Positions 13,246-19,578 of a stretch of DNA of 64,000 nt are shown here, piece after piece. Position numbers and translations under genes: made by a program. The stretch is taken from the NCBI GenBank assembly GCA_964621305.1, contig CAZUOM010000001.1:229448-293447 (forward strand). Direction: 5' to 3'. How positions within the stretch are numbered: position 1 is the first letter of the stretch; each line of letters starts with the position of its first letter. The notes under the pieces were generated by a model that saw only the letters and a program-made list of their open reading frames with translations, searched no databases and was not told where the DNA came from. The stretch comes from an uncultured Gammaproteobacteria bacterium (GTDB lineage: Bacteria > Patescibacteriota > Microgenomatia > UBA10105 > UBA927).

Positions 13246-13431
13246 ATGGTACCACCGGTTGCGTTTTTCAAAGAGGTCACAACGGAGCTGAAGAAGGTTA
13301 CCTGGCCAACCCGTGAAGAGACACTTCGTTACACAGCTATCGTCTTTGCAATATCGATTTTAGTCGGCGCATTCGTCGGCGGACTCGATGTGCTGTTTGT
13401 CAAAACAACGAGTATTTTGTTCAAACGATGA
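13246..13431 (+). CDS. secE: preprotein translocase subunit SecE
   Basis: 61 aa, 'KEVTTELKKVTWPTREE' + single TM helix. Sits immediately upstream of nusG (conserved synteny). Confidence 0.8.
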   Translation: MVPPVAFFKEVTTELKKVTWPTREETLRYTAIVFAISILVGAFVGGLDVLFVKTTSILFKR

Positions 13432-13543: not shown

Positions 13544-14131
13544 ATGGATCAACCAACAACAACAGCCAATCCGCCAGTAACCTCCTCCGGCATTGACCGT
13601 GACGAAGGAAGGACCCGCTGGTATGTGGTCCATACTTACTCCGGCCACGAGAACAAAGTCGCGGCAAATCTTAAGCAGCGCATCGAAACGATGAAGCTTG
13701 CTGATAAAATCTTTGACGTTGTCGTTCCTACAAGGAACATCATCCAGGTCAAGCGAGGTAAAAAAGAAGAAATCAAGGAAAAAATTTTCCCAGGATATAT
13801 TTTGGTAAAAATGGTTTTGGAAGACGACTCCTGGCTCGCTGTCCGGACAACCCAAGGAGTCACGGCTTTCGTCGGTGCCGGCAACAAACCCACCCCAATT
13901 TCCCAAAAGGAAGTGGATACCATCCTCAAGTTTATGGCCCTGGAAGCGCCAACCTATAAGACCAGCTACTCTATGGGTGAAGCCGTCAAAATCATCGATG
14001 GACCGTTTGCGGACTTTCTGGGTTCAGTCAACTCCATTGATGAAACCCGAGGCAAGCTTAAAATCCTCGTCTCGATTTTCGGTAGGGAAACACCAGTGGA
14101 ACTGGATTTTCTCCAAGTATCTAAGCTCTAA
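13544..14131 (+). CDS. nusG: transcription termination/antitermination factor NusG
   Basis: 'WYVVHTYSGHENKV' NGN domain start, KOW-like C-terminus. Confidence 0.9.
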   Translation: MDQPTTTANPPVTSSGIDRDEGRTRWYVVHTYSGHENKVAANLKQRIETMKLADKIFDVVVPTRNIIQVKRGKKEEIKEKIFPGYILVKMVLEDDSWLAVRTTQGVTAFVGAGNKPTPISQKEVDTILKFMALEAPTYKTSYSMGEAVKIIDGPFADFLGSVNSIDETRGKLKILVSIFGRETPVELDFLQVSKL

Positions 14132-14274: not shown

Positions 14275-14703
14275 ATGGCAGTCAAGAAAATCAAAACCGT
14301 TATTAAACTAAATCTCTCTGCAGGAGAGGCTACGCCGGCCCCCCCCGTTGGTCCCGCTCTCGGCCAGCACGGACTGCCGATCATGGAGTTTGTCAGAGCC
14401 TACAACGACAAAACAGGGAAGCTCAAAGGCCAAACCATTCCGGCAGTCATCACCGTCTACGAAGATCGGACGTTTAGTTTTATCACTAAGCTTCCTCCAG
14501 TTGCGGCAATGATCAAAAAAGTTCTCGGCATCGACAAGGGCGGAGGTAAAGCCGGCCGCGAGATTTCTGGCAAGCTCACCAAGGCACAGGTTGAAGACAT
14601 CGCAAAAGACAAACTAGCTGATTTGAATACCGAAGATGTTCAACAGGCGATGAAAGTGGTTGCGGGAACGGCAAAATCGATGGGGATTGAAACAGAAGCT
14701 TAG
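14275..14703 (+). CDS. rplK: 50S ribosomal protein L11
   Basis: 'IKLNLSAGEATPAPPVGPALGQHG' canonical L11. Confidence 0.9.
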   Translation: MAVKKIKTVIKLNLSAGEATPAPPVGPALGQHGLPIMEFVRAYNDKTGKLKGQTIPAVITVYEDRTFSFITKLPPVAAMIKKVLGIDKGGGKAGREISGKLTKAQVEDIAKDKLADLNTEDVQQAMKVVAGTAKSMGIETEA

Positions 14704-14809: not shown

Positions 14810-15673
14810 ATGGGTAAAATTCGTGTAGCTACACTCGGCAGTGAAGAAGAAAAAGAACAACGTCGCAGAGCCGGCGCCCGTCGCCAGACCAAGAAGTCTA
14901 AAAAGGACAAGGTCGAAGGCGTCGGGCTCCATGGCGGCGAGCGCACGGTGGTGATGGAGGGAGCTGAGCTTAAGCCCGAGATAAAACGTTTGGTTGAGGA
15001 AGTAGAAAGTGGAGTGCAGCCAGCAGTCAACAGCCAGCAGTCAACAAAACTGAAAAAAAAGAAACAAGCAAAACCCAAATCCAGACGCTATCAGGAAGCG
15101 GCAAAACTTGTTGATCGCACCAAGCTCTACCTAGTTTCCTCCGCCATTGATCTGGTCAAAAAAACGTCGCTGACCAGATTCGACGGCACAGTCGAGCTCT
15201 CAGTCAACCTCAACGCCGAGTCGTTGGGCGAAAACAAGGCCCTGCGCGGGTCCGCAAGGCTCCCACATTCGATGGGTAAAACCATCCGCGTGGCCATCGC
15301 CGATGATGAGCTTTTGGGTAAAATTGAAAAGGGGGCAATAGATTTTGACATCCTTGTTGCCGCGCCTGCCATGATGCCCAAATTAGCCAAATTTGCCAAA
15401 ATCCTGGGCCCCAAGGGCCTGATGCCCAATCCCAAAAACGGGACCATTGGCGAGGACACAGAGAAACTTGCCGCAAGTTTTGCCAGAGGCGAGATCCACT
15501 TCAAAACCGAGCCGGACCAACCTATTCTCCACTTGGTCGTGGGCAAAGTATCCCAGCCGGAAAAAGAACTGGCAGAAAATGTGGAGGCGTATCTGTCCGC
15601 CATCGGTCCTTCAAAAATTCTCAAGGCCACTCTTTCTGCGACCATGGGACCGGGGGTGAAGGTGAAAATATAA
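14810..15673 (+). CDS. rplA: 50S ribosomal protein L1 (with about 90-aa Lys/Arg-rich N-terminal extension or mis-called start)
   Basis: From 'KPKSRRYQEAAKLVDRTKLY' onward it matches canonical L1. The upstream 90 codons are K/R/E-rich and contain a 15-bp tandem duplication (agccagcagtcaaca x2 at about 15016..15045). No RBS at 14810. Confidence 0.8.
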   Translation: MGKIRVATLGSEEEKEQRRRAGARRQTKKSKKDKVEGVGLHGGERTVVMEGAELKPEIKRLVEEVESGVQPAVNSQQSTKLKKKKQAKPKSRRYQEAAKLVDRTKLYLVSSAIDLVKKTSLTRFDGTVELSVNLNAESLGENKALRGSARLPHSMGKTIRVAIADDELLGKIEKGAIDFDILVAAPAMMPKLAKFAKILGPKGLMPNPKNGTIGEDTEKLAASFARGEIHFKTEPDQPILHLVVGKVSQPEKELAENVEAYLSAIGPSKILKATLSATMGPGVKVKI

Positions 15674-16383
15674 TAAACTACCCAGAATGCGAAGGTGCTC
15701 CTCGATATGTATGATATAGATCAAAAGTATACGCAAATGGATACACCCTGGGATAAAGGACTGATGGGTGGATTAGTCCAAAAACCCAAAGCGTATCAGA
15801 AGTCAAACTCGGCGAGAAACAAATCAATTGTTCACCAAAAAAACTTTCACCATCATCTTTATAGCGGACAACACTCAAATACACGCCTTTTGTTGCTGTC
15901 GGGAAGAAGTAATGCTCTTCTTGATTGGATTCGATATAGGCTGCAACACTTGCTGTATTTTGTTCCTCACCCGGTATACCTAGCCGGAGAAGAATCATAT
16001 TGCGAGCGACAACATCTTCTGGTGAATACCGAAGAAGCCATTTGATGCCATGGCTTCCTGGCTGATAAAATTCTTCTAGACTCGTCCCAACAATGCGTTC
16101 ATTGAGTGCCCATAGGAGATCCGATTGTAATATCGACCGATATCCCTATTGGAAGAGCTTTTGGAAATAGATGCCGAACATCCCTAGGAATAACTACCGG
16201 CGCCCTGATGCGCTGTGTTTCAAATTCGCCAATTGTATTGGTCATATTCATTAATAATTGTATAGTTTTTTGCTATAAGATTTCAATAGCGTCCAAAAAT
16301 TAGCCGATGGGAAAACTATCAAACGCGCGACAGTGACCCTCTCTTCTACCACTAGCCCGGGGGAGAAAGTGATATTTGGGTAA

Positions 16384-17013
16384 CTACGATGCCAACAAGA
16401 GCTTCTTACGCTTGCTCCAAGCGTACTCGTTTATTCCAAGTTCCGGAATTTTTTTCGTTTCCCAGATCAGACTTGTAATTTCATTCTGGAGCGGCTGCAT
16501 GGGCAGTTGGGCAACCAGAAGCGACAGGATGTCCAAGCGGTCTTTCTGACCTTTGGCTGTCAGCTTCCGCTGGCCGTACACATAACCTTTAAGCGCGAGC
16601 AACACATCAACCGTGGGGACAACAAAAGTATCAATAGTGTGTGTTTTTTTCAAAACATCCTCAACCGGCATCCCGATACTGCTCCAATGAGGCAGGTATA
16701 TATCAATGGAAGCCATATCGTCCAGCGCCTCGTATTTTTTGAGCCGTTCGTTTTTGACAACAGGATAACGTTTTTTCAGCTTTTCCAGTTGGTCGTAGGA
16801 GACGATGATATCGATATCCTTGGATTTAAGCGCTTTGGTATAAAGCCACACTGCCCAACCGCCGATGAGGACAAACGTAACTGCCCGCTTCAGATCCTGG
16901 AGCGTCTGCCAGCTTTTGGCAGTGATAATATCGTTATAAAAATCCATAGGCGTGCTCTTTGAGCGCACGGAAGTAATCCGTCGCATACCAATCGGACAAG
17001 TTCCAAAGGTCAA
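16384..17013 (-). CDS. minimal nucleotidyltransferase-fold protein (AbiEii/MNT-like putative toxin)
   Basis: 'VLIGGWAVWLYTKALKSKDIDIIV' = GG...DxD polymerase-beta NTase motif. The real start is probably Met-23 (about 16947), overlapping the upstream HTH gene stop. Confidence 0.5.
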   Translation of the reverse strand: MTFGTCPIGMRRITSVRSKSTPMDFYNDIITAKSWQTLQDLKRAVTFVLIGGWAVWLYTKALKSKDIDIIVSYDQLEKLKKRYPVVKNERLKKYEALDDMASIDIYLPHWSSIGMPVEDVLKKTHTIDTFVVPTVDVLLALKGYVYGQRKLTAKGQKDRLDILSLLVAQLPMQPLQNEITSLIWETKKIPELGINEYAWSKRKKLLLAS

Positions 17014-17503
17014 CCAGCGTCTGGGACACAGGGGTGACGTTACCTGTTAAATACGGGTCCGGACGAAGGACAAAAAGATTGGCCGGGCCGGGTGCTTTGG
17101 GAAACCGCACCTTGAGCGCTTCTGTCCCGTACACGTACACTTTATCATAGTCAGCAGGAGCAGAGCCCAGATGAATGCGCACGGCGCTATAACAGCCGTA
17201 AACGGCGTGGGCATCCATGAGTCCCTCGATTTCGGCAACTGAAAAAGGGGCGCGCGTTGCGTATATAATGTCCCTAGAAAGATTACGGTGCGTGGCCCAG
17301 AAATAGAGGAGTTTTTCGGCATTTGTAAGACGAAAATTTCTCCCGGTAACCACTACCGCGCCAAGTTCCCTTAATGGGGATAGGGCGGAAAATACAGTGC
17401 TGGTGCTCATGCCAAACTGCTCGGCGAGCTTCTTTTGCTCAAACACCGGATGCTTCACCCCGGCCTCTAGGATTTCCCTCCAGATGATTTCGATTTTCTT
17501 CAT
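16934..17503 (-). CDS. HTH-domain protein (AbiEi-like putative antitoxin/regulator)
   Basis: N-terminal wHTH-like 'KKLAEQFGMSTSTVFSALSPLRELG'. Sits upstream of and overlapping the NTase gene, which is the AbiE architecture. Confidence 0.45.
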   Translation of the reverse strand: MKKIEIIWREILEAGVKHPVFEQKKLAEQFGMSTSTVFSALSPLRELGAVVVTGRNFRLTNAEKLLYFWATHRNLSRDIIYATRAPFSVAEIEGLMDAHAVYGCYSAVRIHLGSAPADYDKVYVYGTEALKVRFPKAPGPANLFVLRPDPYLTGNVTPVSQTLVDLWNLSDWYATDYFRALKEHAYGFL

Positions 17504-17756
17504 GCGTTTTTTCTCTCTTTTCGAATATAATCGAAAAGAGCAGCCTTGTCAAATCCTTACACGCCACCTCTCCCCCACCATAACGTAAGGCTATAGCCCA
17601 CCTGGGCTGCGCAAGCGAACACCAATGGGCAATTTTTATTACTTGCAGAATGGCCACGTTTATGAGATACTCTTTTTATCCTAAAGACCGTAGGTTCCGG
17701 TTATCAAGCGGAAGACCGCTTCAGCCGGATTAAAATCCTACCGAGGGAAAATTTAT

Positions 17757-17868
17757 ATTGTTACATTGCTGCGTTGTCACATTGTTAACGAACAATCCAG
17801 AATGTAGCCTTTCCCTCGCATCATGCGAGGTTTTTTATTTTTAACAATTTAACAATTTAACAATTTTT
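17757..17868. promoter_or_regulatory. AT-rich composite motif copy A (TTGTTACATTGCT...ACATTGTTAA...TTAACAATTTAACAATTTAACAAT) in rplJ upstream region
   Basis: Shares submotifs with 32581..32643 and 42078..42150. Lies between divergent gene starts. Confidence 0.5.
17813..17842 (+). terminator. hairpin cctcgcatcatgcgagg + T6AT5 (rplJ leader attenuator/terminator-like)
   Basis: Near-perfect palindrome followed by ttttttattttt, 30 nt upstream of the rplJ start. Confidence 0.5.
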
Positions 17869-17872
17869 CAAT

Positions 17873-18388
17873 ATGCCAACACAGAAAAAAATCGACACCG
17901 TCACTGATTTAACCGAAAAGCTTGCAAGAGCCAAGTCAGTCATGCTGACTGACTATCGCGGTTTAAAGCATAAACAGATGGAGGAGCTAAGGGGTGCGCT
18001 CAAAAAGGCCAATGCTGACTTTATGGTTGCTAAAAATCGGCTGTTTCTGCGCGCCCTTGGTAGTAAAGCAAAATCACTTAAAGAATATCTTAAGGATACA
18101 ACTGCAATCCTTTTTTCCTATGCAGATGGCGTCGCCCCACTCAAAGAACTCGTTAAATATTTCAAAGCAGCCGGTGTGGGCAAAACCAAAATTGGCCTTG
18201 TGGAAGGCCGGATGCTTTTAGAAGATGACCTCCTGCGATTGTCTACCTTGCCAACCCGTGACGTCTTGCTCTCACAGCTCGCTAGACAACTCAATGCCCC
18301 AATCCAAGGCTTACATTACACGCTCTCGCGGAATGTGAGAAGGCTGTTATACGCCTTGCAACAAATCCAAAAATCAAAATCCAAATGA
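17873..18388 (+). CDS. rplJ: 50S ribosomal protein L10
   Basis: 'KKIDTVTDLTEKLARAKSVMLTDYRGLKHKQMEELR' canonical L10. Confidence 0.85.
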   Translation: MPTQKKIDTVTDLTEKLARAKSVMLTDYRGLKHKQMEELRGALKKANADFMVAKNRLFLRALGSKAKSLKEYLKDTTAILFSYADGVAPLKELVKYFKAAGVGKTKIGLVEGRMLLEDDLLRLSTLPTRDVLLSQLARQLNAPIQGLHYTLSRNVRRLLYALQQIQKSKSK

Positions 18389-18447: not shown

Positions 18448-18840
18448 ATGACCAAATTATCAAAAGATGAATTATTAAAAGCAGTTGAGGAGATGAGCGT
18501 TTTGGAGCTGGCTGATTTCGTGAAAGCCTTGGAGGAAAAATTCGGCGTGAGCGCCCAGCCAGTAGCTGTGCCAGCGACTGTGCCCGCCGAAGCTTCAGCG
18601 AAGGAGGGAGCGAATGCCCCCGAACAGACTGTATTCAACGTCGTTCTTGCGGCACCCGGAGACAACAAAATCGGCGTCATCAAAGCTGTCCGCGAGCTCG
18701 TCCCAACTCTCGGACTCCAGGAGGCAAAGATTCTCGTTGAATCTGCTCCCAAGGACGTCCTAACTGCTGTCAACAAGGCAACAGCCGAGGAGGCAAAAAA
18801 GAAATTGGAAGCAGCGGGTGCAAAAGTGGATCTCAACTAA
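18448..18840 (+). CDS. rplL: 50S ribosomal protein L7/L12
   Basis: '[27 protein letters not shown]' ... '[24 protein letters not shown]'. Good RBS ggaggtga. Confidence 0.9.
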
Positions 18841-18882: not shown

Positions 18883-19578
18883 CTATGTGTCTTGACCATC
18901 AATACTCATTGTATAAATAAATTCACTATCTCCCGCCTGGGATACAAAAGATTCATAGGACAAATGCGGATTCTTCCGAGAAAAGTAAGAAAGGATTTCA
19001 GTGGTAGACAGCCACATCGTCTTACGGCGACCAAGATAATCTAAATAAGACGAAGGCTGCTCTGACAACATTTCCAAGGGGACCCCTTGCAAAGCTAATG
19101 GGTTGCGATGAATATAGCGGGATAGATGCTGGAGCTGTTCATCGGTTGTGACCAGAACTGCTTTATAAACACCTTGATACAGCGGCCCTACCCGTTTATT
19201 TTTCCTATTAAAATACATCGTATATCGAGTGCATAACGAGTTCATAAATGTATCGACAGCTGTTCCCTCCTTCTGTTTGACTAAAAGATGAAAATGGTTC
19301 GGCATGAGACAGTAAGCAAAAAGACGTATCGAGCCAAAAAAATTGTTGAGTTGAAGTGATTTGAGAATCTTATGTTTCTCTTTTGAAGAAACGGTCGGGT
19401 CGGCCAAACGACTACGAAGAGACTTTTTGTCTTTCTGTAGAAGATATTCTTTCAGATACGACAAAAATACACTATAGTCTTGGGCATCTTGAAAGATAAT
19501 CCGCTTCTCTACTCCGCGATTGTAAATATGGTAATACCCATTGGTAACGTAAAGCTTTTCAGAGTTTTTTGCAGGCAT
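18883..19578 (-). CDS. REP-associated tyrosine transposase (IS200/IS605-like Y1 HUH transposase, RAYT), paralog 1
   Basis: 'YHIYNRGVEKRIIF' and HUH motif 'MPNHFHLL'. Flanked by REP type 1 palindromes, with one more inside the CDS (encoding ALQGVPLEM). Confidence 0.7.
   Translation of the reverse strand: MPAKNSEKLYVTNGYYHIYNRGVEKRIIFQDAQDYSVFLSYLKEYLLQKDKKSLRSRLADPTVSSKEKHKILKSLQLNNFFGSIRLFAYCLMPNHFHLLVKQKEGTAVDTFMNSLCTRYTMYFNRKNKRVGPLYQGVYKAVLVTTDEQLQHLSRYIHRNPLALQGVPLEMLSEQPSSYLDYLGRRKTMWLSTTEILSYFSRKNPHLSYESFVSQAGDSEFIYTMSIDGQDT

Follow-up and report, generated by a model that had tools for sequence, protein, structure and literature searches.

A putative MenT/AbiEii-like toxin-antitoxin cassette at a recurrent insertion site between rplA and rplJ in a Patescibacteria lineage

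We analyzed a 64,000-nucleotide stretch of contig CAZUOM010000001.1 (assembly GCA_964621305.1; Patescibacteriota), referred to here as the window, in which two overlapping genes, one for a winged helix-turn-helix (wHTH) protein and one for a protein of the nucleotidyltransferase (NTase) fold, lie between the ribosomal protein genes rplA and rplJ. The plus strand carries, in order, secE (13246-13431) and nusG (13544-14131), both taken from the list of open reading frames (ORFs); rplK (uL11; 14275-14703), an ORF for which an identical gene has Ribosomal_L11 domains and which forms the upstream unit with rplA; rplA (uL1, 287 aa; 14810-15673; Pfam Ribosomal_L1, 8.7e-31; TIGR01169, 2e-51); rplJ (uL10; 17873-18388; Pfam Ribosomal_L10, 6.4e-24; NF000955, 1e-38); and rplL (bL12; 18448-18840), an ORF with Ribosomal_L12 domains. 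An earlier reading of the letters (here called the original prediction) had rplA ending at 15673 and rplJ starting at 17873, and the ORF list together with the Pfam and NCBIfam matches to L1 and L10 confirmed both positions. The gap between them (15674-17872) measures 2199 bp and holds the two overlapping genes on the minus strand, opposite to the ribosomal genes; a pair of an HTH gene and an NTase gene had also been predicted, and it was found, with the NTase being of the Pol-beta type, as ORFs at 16934-17503 and 16384-17013, respectively. The start proposed for the second ORF did not hold: a database copy of the protein (P0001; 100% identical, 187 aa) and all homologues begin MDFYND, which places the true start at ATG 16947. 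With this start, the NTase gene overlaps the HTH gene by 14 nt and not by 80.

Joining of two contigs at the ends of rplA and rplJ, as an assembly or binning chimera, would be a trivial explanation for the arrangement. Such chimeras are a general risk with metagenome-assembled genomes of the candidate phyla radiation (CPR), and nothing specific to this locus points to one. A 13-kb Logan contig (SRR6943130; two samples), which may share its reads with the source genome, spans nusG to beyond rplL in the identical order nusG-rplK-rplA-gap-rplJ-rplL, and its two noncoding gap parts match the window at 710 of 710 and 369 of 369 bases. Because gene order and noncoding sequence are the same in this independent Logan assembly, an assembler-specific chimera was rejected as very unlikely. 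The region shows no break in GC content, except for a somewhat AT-richer segment at 15674-16383, and expanded junctions occur in relatives too (described below); we give a chimera of any kind next to no weight.

For the NTase gene (16384-16947, minus strand), motifs, an AF2 model, Foldseek, and Pfam point to a protein of 187 aa with a minimal, DUF6036-like Pol-beta fold, and we regard the product as a putative toxin. The window protein reads GGWAV...DIDII at its first motif, with S42-K-D44-I-D46, K120...R127, and K132-G-x-K-D136-x-x-D139; invariant positions in the family alignment are G29-G30, S42-K43-D44-x-D46, D82, K120, R127, and K132-G133-x-K135-D136-x-x-D139. All four NTase motifs (hG[GS]...[ST]xDh[DE]h, an acidic residue on the next strand, a Lys, and an Asp) are present in the family. 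In MenT1 the key residues are T39, D41xD43, K137, and D152, and T39, like S78 of MenT3, is the residue that becomes auto-phosphorylated, a Ser or Thr being strictly conserved there (PMC11375011); a 2026 preprint (10.64898/2026.01.19.700257) extends antitoxin-induced auto-phosphorylation to AbiEii. Matched by pattern and fold, and not by residue-level structural alignment, S42, D44, and D46 would correspond to T39, D41, and D43 of MenT1, K120 to K137, and D136 or D139 to D152, with roles taken from PMC11375011. The segment S42-x-D44-x-D46 fits the MenT phospho-acceptor pattern, and we infer that Ser42 is the equivalent of MenT1 T39 and MenT3 S78. The protein is basic (pI, the isoelectric point, 9.3; family median, 9.1), which is compatible with an RNA substrate.

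The AF2 model of the NTase is confident (pLDDT, the model's predicted local accuracy score, 92). When the model was compared with the PDB by Foldseek, the top matches were to MenT1 (8an5 and 8an4), with E values of 4.5e-6 to 8.5e-5 and template modeling (TM) scores of 0.49 to 0.58 (8an5_B had the E value of 4.5e-6 and 8an4_B the TM score of 0.58); these were followed by 5uvd and JHP933 (4o8s, E 1.1e-4) and then by ANT(2'')-Ia, LnuA, and TM1012. The best-scoring Pfam family for the cassette NTases was DUF6036 (PF19502), matched in 33 of 36 family members. P0014, P0098, and P0115 passed its threshold, P0014 with 35.2 bits over profile positions 16 to 161 of 164, and passing relatives at 59% identity cover nearly the whole model. 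Weak matches to AbiEii (PF08843) were obtained in 13 of the 36 members, and one was above threshold: a protein 48% identical to the window NTase (P0117) scored 30.1 bits, over profile positions 128 to 189 of 238 only, the region of motifs III and IV.

The partner gene (16934-17503, minus strand) encodes a 189-aa, 21.4-kDa protein that, from its wHTH matches, its AF2 model, and the gene order, we propose to be an autorepressor and antitoxin. The model (pLDDT 94) shows a wHTH domain at residues 1 to 72 followed by an alpha/beta domain without family assignment. Its Pfam matches were all to generic wHTH families and below threshold (HTH_Crp_2, E 5e-5), Foldseek returned only wHTH regulators (E of 5e-3 or higher), aligned through the N-terminal wHTH, and a profile of the protein compared with the PDB likewise found generic wHTH regulators only. 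No AbiEi structure was present in the top 50 Foldseek matches, and no AbiEi Pfam family matched the window protein, 36 relatives, or 10 distant representatives. When the HTH alignment was used for an exhaustive profile search, the 150 top matches all came from the family itself. Scans of PADLOC, NCBIfam, and PHROGs gave no meaningful match for either the NTase or the HTH protein, and neither component is curated in defense or toxin-antitoxin (TA) databases.

Upstream of the HTH gene lies the best promoter-like site in 15500-18000, a candidate sigma-70-type promoter on the minus strand (TTGACA-17-TATATT, 11 of 12 consensus positions; 17524-17552). A 26-bp palindrome (an inverted repeat, I11; 17515-17540) overlaps its -10 hexamer and is a putative operator. 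The 18-bp core, TTTCGAATATAATCGAAA at 17519-17536, is conserved across the cassette family: 57 of 61 family loci have the 18-bp palindrome TTTCGAnTATnATnGAAA overlapping their -10 box, and in these the core (consensus TTTC[G/T]A-N6-T[C/A]GAAA with a TATnAT center) lies 14 to 81 nt upstream of the HTH start. Elsewhere in the family loci the core occurred 20 times in 470 kb, and the 64-kb window contains exactly one copy. Since the motif is conserved although the family proteins are only 40 to 60% identical, we take it as a putative operator; this conservation is strong evidence that the wHTH protein would bind there.

The cassette is not peculiar to this genome. At an E value of at most 1e-3, we found 1747 homologues of the NTase and 765 of the HTH protein, and the exhaustive profile search yielded 379 HTH representatives after clustering at 50% identity; the NTases number more than 1,700 clusters. 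Named sources were Gottesmanbacteria, Microgenomates, Portnoybacteria, and the Patescibacteria group, so as far as source names show, the family is confined to Patescibacteria. Close homologues (66 to 70% identity) form the same overlapping pair in three different contexts, for example, ndk/peptidase M16 and a RadA-like gene/citrate synthase. A metagenome scan added 80 further loci. In all but one of the approximately 80 loci with upstream sequence, the NTase gene is immediately preceded on the same strand by the HTH gene; the exception is an orphan NTase gene without an upstream HTH gene (L141, 1-888). The two genes are spaced by -29 to +43 nt (HTH stop to NTase start) in 78 of 79 loci, and they overlap in 37 of these. 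Clustering of 327 flanking ORFs revealed no conserved neighbor, the largest shared family being present in 5 of 71 loci, and a scan of viral contigs found no family member and with it no evidence of phage carriage. At two loci, L070 (10863-11677) and L094 (128-1058), rplJ-rplL lies within 2 to 5 kb of the cassette in other relative positions; two among about 30 long loci is suggestive but not significant. In the literature searched, we found no paper that mentions DUF6036 or describes this CPR cassette family.

With moderate confidence, we propose that the gap cassette is an autoregulated MenAT/AbiE-like TA module, in the style of type VII and type IV systems and with an antitoxin/repressor of a new family, that landed between the rplKA and rplJL units. 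The strong sigma-70 promoter (17552-17524, minus strand) would drive the wHTH gene and, by translational coupling, the NTase gene. The wHTH protein would repress the operon by binding the palindrome over the -10 box, as the conservation of the site suggests. MenT toxins and AbiEii add nucleotides to the 3'-CCA ends of tRNA and thereby block translation; the free NTase, in which the metal-binding and catalytic motifs are intact, would, judging from fold and motifs, most likely do the same. The C-terminal domain of the wHTH protein would neutralize the NTase, possibly by inducing auto-phosphorylation of Ser42 within S-x-D-x-D. The cassette has the generic features of TA modules, namely, a coupled two-gene operon with the regulator first, a putatively bound operator in the promoter, and variable genomic contexts.

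The cassette can be compared with several known systems. MenT1 (Rv0078A) of Mycobacterium tuberculosis, the best Foldseek match, is an NTase toxin that is likewise minimal (about 20 kDa), and its antitoxin gene is located upstream (PMC11375011), as the HTH gene is here. However, the window NTase has no sequence-level match to MenT1 and a TM score of only about 0.5, and MenA1 is a 7.4-kDa peptide that has no HTH and does not autoregulate transcription (PMC11375011), whereas here the partner is a wHTH protein of 21 kDa and its putative operator is conserved. In size and layout this partner resembles the MenA3/AbiEi antitoxin, which has 22.5 kDa, a wHTH, and a C-terminal domain (PMC11375011). AbiE and MenAT3/MenAT4 (COG5340 plus DUF1814) share with the cassette an upstream wHTH antitoxin of about 21 to 22 kDa with a C-terminal domain, whose gene overlaps the downstream NTase gene, and the motif III/IV region of the NTase is recognizable by PF08843 in relatives. 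AbiEi binds inverted repeats in its own promoter and represses its own expression, and the cassette promoter likewise carries an inverted repeat, here a putative site of autorepression. In contrast with AbiEii and MenT3, the window NTase is about 100 aa shorter, and unlike AbiEi, the HTH protein has neither an AbiEi Pfam match nor an AbiEi structure among its top Foldseek matches. The original prediction of a type IV AbiEi/AbiEii architecture therefore stands in part: Pfam and Foldseek place the NTase in the AbiEii/MenT superfamily and the layout is wHTH first, but the profile checks (no PF08843, no PADLOC AbiE, and no AbiEi Pfam family in the HTH protein) do not support membership in AbiE proper. 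DUF6036 is the best-scoring Pfam family for these NTases, with the window protein below threshold, and as a Pfam family it has no assigned function or partner. MNT-HEPN modules (type II/VII) are also small two-gene cassettes with a minimal Pol-beta NTase. Their toxin, however, is a HEPN RNase, with the NTase serving as antitoxin; the cassette lacks a HEPN partner, and its NTase falls into the AbiEii/DUF6036 branch.

Several observations weigh against a TA module. Toxicity and antitoxicity are read from fold, motifs, and gene order. The Foldseek TM scores are only about 0.5, with a high root mean square deviation, and ANT(2'')-Ia, LnuA, and TM1012 also match, with E values of about 5e-4. The window NTase itself scores 20.1 bits on DUF6036 (E 6e-4) against a threshold of 23.6, with its N-terminal part only, and it has no match to PF08843 or to the PADLOC AbiE models at an E value of up to 1. 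A hidden Markov model profile of the NTase family compared with the PDB found no MenT or AbiEii chain and 5uvd only marginally. The C-terminal domain of the HTH protein has no detectable relation to AbiEi, to MenA3, or to any Pfam or PDB entry, so that the case for an antitoxin role is one of gene order and analogy alone. At one locus (L119, 1919-2472), the HTH gene appears frameshifted beside an intact NTase gene; this locus and the orphan L141 may be counterexamples to an obligate dependence on the antitoxin, unless sequencing errors account for them. Finally, the proteins and the operator are unusually conserved, with no copy on viral contigs and no flanking mobile-element genes, which would also fit a regulated enzyme that is not toxic.

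Such an enzyme, of a housekeeping or resistance type, would nucleotidylylate a small molecule (an antibiotic, metabolite, or cofactor), and the wHTH protein would be a ligand-responsive repressor, with no TA function involved. In addition to the strong conservation and the lack of association with phage or mobile-element genes, the Foldseek matches to ANT(2'')-Ia, LnuA, and TM1012 (E values of 4.6e-4 to 3e-3; TM scores of 0.45 to 0.56) and weak Aminoglyc_resit matches in 27 of the 36 family members would be consistent with this explanation, and the C-terminal domain of the repressor, having no known fold, could bind a ligand. The GGWA motif presumably resembles that of ANT(2'')/Lnu-type enzymes. 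However, the best structural matches are MenT1 toxins, the AbiEii motif III/IV region exceeds the Pfam threshold in a relative, and the invariant serine of S-x-D-x-D matches the MenT phospho-acceptor. A pI of 9.3 is what is expected of an RNA-binding enzyme, and the tight overlap, regulator-first order, and scattered contexts are typical of TA cassettes. We regard a small-molecule enzyme as the main rival, of low probability, and retain the TA module as the preferred reading. More tentatively, the family may be a branch of NTase TA systems that extends across the CPR and is so far undescribed. In it, a minimal, DUF6036-type, MenT-like toxin would be controlled by antitoxins of a new family, which combine a wHTH with a C-terminal domain outside known classes and have no relation to AbiEi or MenA1, and a near-invariant operator would surround the cassette's own -10 box.

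In Escherichia coli and Bacillus subtilis, rplJL has its own promoter and an autoregulatory leader that binds L10, and rplKA is a separate autoregulated unit. The predicted layout of the window is comparable. A candidate rplJ promoter on the plus strand (TTGCAG at 17643-17648, a 17-nt spacer, and GATACT at 17666-17671), whose role is suggested by alignment with relatives, corresponds to a conserved TTGCGT-17-TATACT in those genomes. It is followed by a predicted L10 leader RNA (17663-17845, plus strand; RF00557) that would comprise the binding motif for L10(L12)4 and, as attenuator, an intrinsic terminator. At 40.2 bits, this match falls short of the gathering score (44), and it covers the full model (positions 1 to 138) on the correct strand upstream of rplJ, with an E value of 4.8e-4 in a 6-kb search and 2.7e-5 in 341 nt. 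An Rfam search of six relatives together (70 kb) gave no L10 leader at an E value of up to 0.1; the conservation came instead from an alignment of the regions upstream of rplJ in the nine closest relatives, in which the leader core TATCCTAAAGACCGTAGG...CCTACCGAGGGAA was common to eight. A hairpin at 17814-17830 followed by the T-run TTTTTTATTT, detected by a terminator scan, aligns with the terminator stem of the leader model. The hairpin/T-run terminator that the original prediction had noted at 17813-17842 is thus present, not as a separate feature but as the 3' stem and U-run of the predicted L10 leader.

In the alignment of the upstream regions (window 17650-17875 and relatives L007 to L016), the leaders of the close relatives fall into two architectures, a short form in which the ATG directly follows CCGAGGGAAcat (L007, L010, L012, and L013) and a long form with about 100 extra nt and a terminator hairpin before the ATG (the window, L008, L009, and L015). 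Between the leader terminator and the rplJ start codon, the window also contains a tandem 8-mer, TTTAACAA, in three to four copies (17840-17871).

As judged from the sequence, rplJL has its own conserved candidate promoter and a predicted autoregulatory leader, and the ribosomal genes would not be functionally split. With such a promoter and leader, the foreign DNA (15674 to about 17640) would separate two transcription units and interrupt neither, and the description of the module as sitting inside one of the most conserved operons is not supported. The window differs from E. coli and B. subtilis in that its gap is 2.2 kb long and holds foreign genes.

Synteny was assessed at 62 loci from a genome scan for L10, with L1, L11, L10, L12, and NusG placed by tblastn. 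The distance between rplA and rplJ was 45 to 406 bp in all but one of the 50 loci from phyla outside the CPR (Chloroflexota, Zixibacteria, Coriobacteriia, and others); the exception (L035) had a gap of 1535 bp with ORFs that by eye were transposase-like and a 223-aa ORF without a Pfam match. The premise that the two genes are adjacent in almost all bacteria therefore holds generally, but not in this lineage, where the junction is a recurrent insertion site. Among ten close relatives, Gottesmanbacteria- or Woesebacteria-like loci with 48 to 68% L10 identity, the gap was 132, 580, 726, 1705, 1965, or 2210 bp; three (L007, L009, and L016) had no rplA within 2 to 7 kb upstream of rplJ, and the upstream sequence of L011 was too short to place the gene. 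The cargo differed from locus to locus: a protein of about 520 aa resembling type I phosphodiesterases (L008 and L010), a PaaX-like regulator on the opposite strand (L014), retropepsin-like aspartyl proteases of 119 to 125 aa directly upstream of the rplJ promoter (L012, 6138-6497, and L009, 6456-6833; Pfam gag-asp_proteas/Asp_protease_2), and ORFs without an assigned family (L015 and L008). None of the close relatives compared carried the HTH/NTase pair at this junction. The nusG-rplK junction was expanded as well, with 1.2 to 2.9 kb of unrelated ORFs in L008 (1099-3451), L010 (2690-3936), and L015 (2229-5149), which indicates that the secE-nusG-rplKAJL cluster has more than one permissive boundary in this lineage. 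Unrelated genes have repeatedly landed at the rplA-rplJ junction in this CPR lineage; since the closest relatives have 0.6 to 2.2 kb of different cargo at the same junction or lack a nearby rplA, the placement, which had been thought unusual, is not remarkable. An insertion at what is probably the natural boundary of two autonomously promoted, autoregulated units says little about the integrity of ribosomal operons. Apart from this junction, a Gottesmanbacteria relative (L012, 10661-10725, plus strand) matched the DUF3800-II small RNA with 57.2 bits (E 4.4e-9), which exceeds the gathering score.

These data also bear on whether the location was selected, that is, whether the cassette is coupled to ribosomal protein expression, either because the HTH protein co-regulates the divergent rplJ promoter or because the activity of the NTase on translation components keeps pace with L10/L12 synthesis. 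About 90 bp separate the cassette promoter (17552-17524) from the rplJ promoter (17643-17671), which points the opposite way, and rplJ-rplL is found within 2 to 5 kb of the cassette in L070 and L094. At those two loci, however, position and orientation relative to rplJL differ from those in the window, and ribosomal genes are absent from the vicinity of about 70 other family loci. It is the HTH gene, and not rplJ, that the operator always goes with; its single copy in the window does not overlap the rplJ promoter, and the relatives hold unrelated cargo at the junction and never this cassette. We consider such coupling highly improbable, and the preferred reading remains a TA module that landed at a permissive boundary.

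The remainder of the gap is an orphan spacer of 710 bp (15674-16383; GC content of 0.42 to 0.45, compared with about 0.5 in the flanks). Six-frame translation revealed only broken minus-strand ORFs, at 16251-16099 (50 aa) and, in another frame, 16145-15681 (155 aa), with a promoter-like site (10 of 12 matches; 16286-16257, minus strand) upstream of the 50-aa ORF. The spacer had no Pfam or PHROG match, a search of 5.8 billion proteins gave no homologue, and neither the other fetched loci nor the rest of the window contain similar sequence. The approximately 700 bp of possibly degraded sequence in the original prediction is thus real as a stretch, and it could be a decayed orphan gene or noncoding spacer DNA. 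A pair of 19-nt direct repeats (15671/17786; 79% identity), considered as a target-site duplication, was rejected as indistinguishable from chance.

Two further features of the flanking genes were observed. The uL1 protein is extended at its N terminus by about 95 aa with many Lys, Arg, and Glu residues (MGKIRVATLG..EEKEQ.RRA.ARRQTKKSKK.KVEGVG..GGER; window 14810-15100), the canonical L1 domain follows, and the extension is kept in all Gottesmanbacteria-like relatives examined (L008, L010, L012, L014, and L015). Directly downstream of rplL lies an IS200/Y1-transposase-like gene (18883-19578, minus strand; Pfam Y1_Tnp, 4e-10), and rpoB, which normally follows rplL, is not adjacent in the window.

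The interest of the locus, which we consider moderate, lies in the cassette family, which combines a full MenT/AbiEii catalytic signature, including the phospho-acceptor serine, with a partner that has a conserved operator. If the family is indeed a TA branch of its own, it would be among the few defense- or TA-type modules widely kept in the reduced genomes of CPR bacteria, and if the partner also triggers auto-phosphorylation of Ser42, this toxin fold would have a third independent antitoxin solution. Through this family, the recent proposal that antitoxins induce auto-phosphorylation could be carried over to a new group of antitoxins, and the family could give a handle on translation control or phage defense in unculturable organisms.

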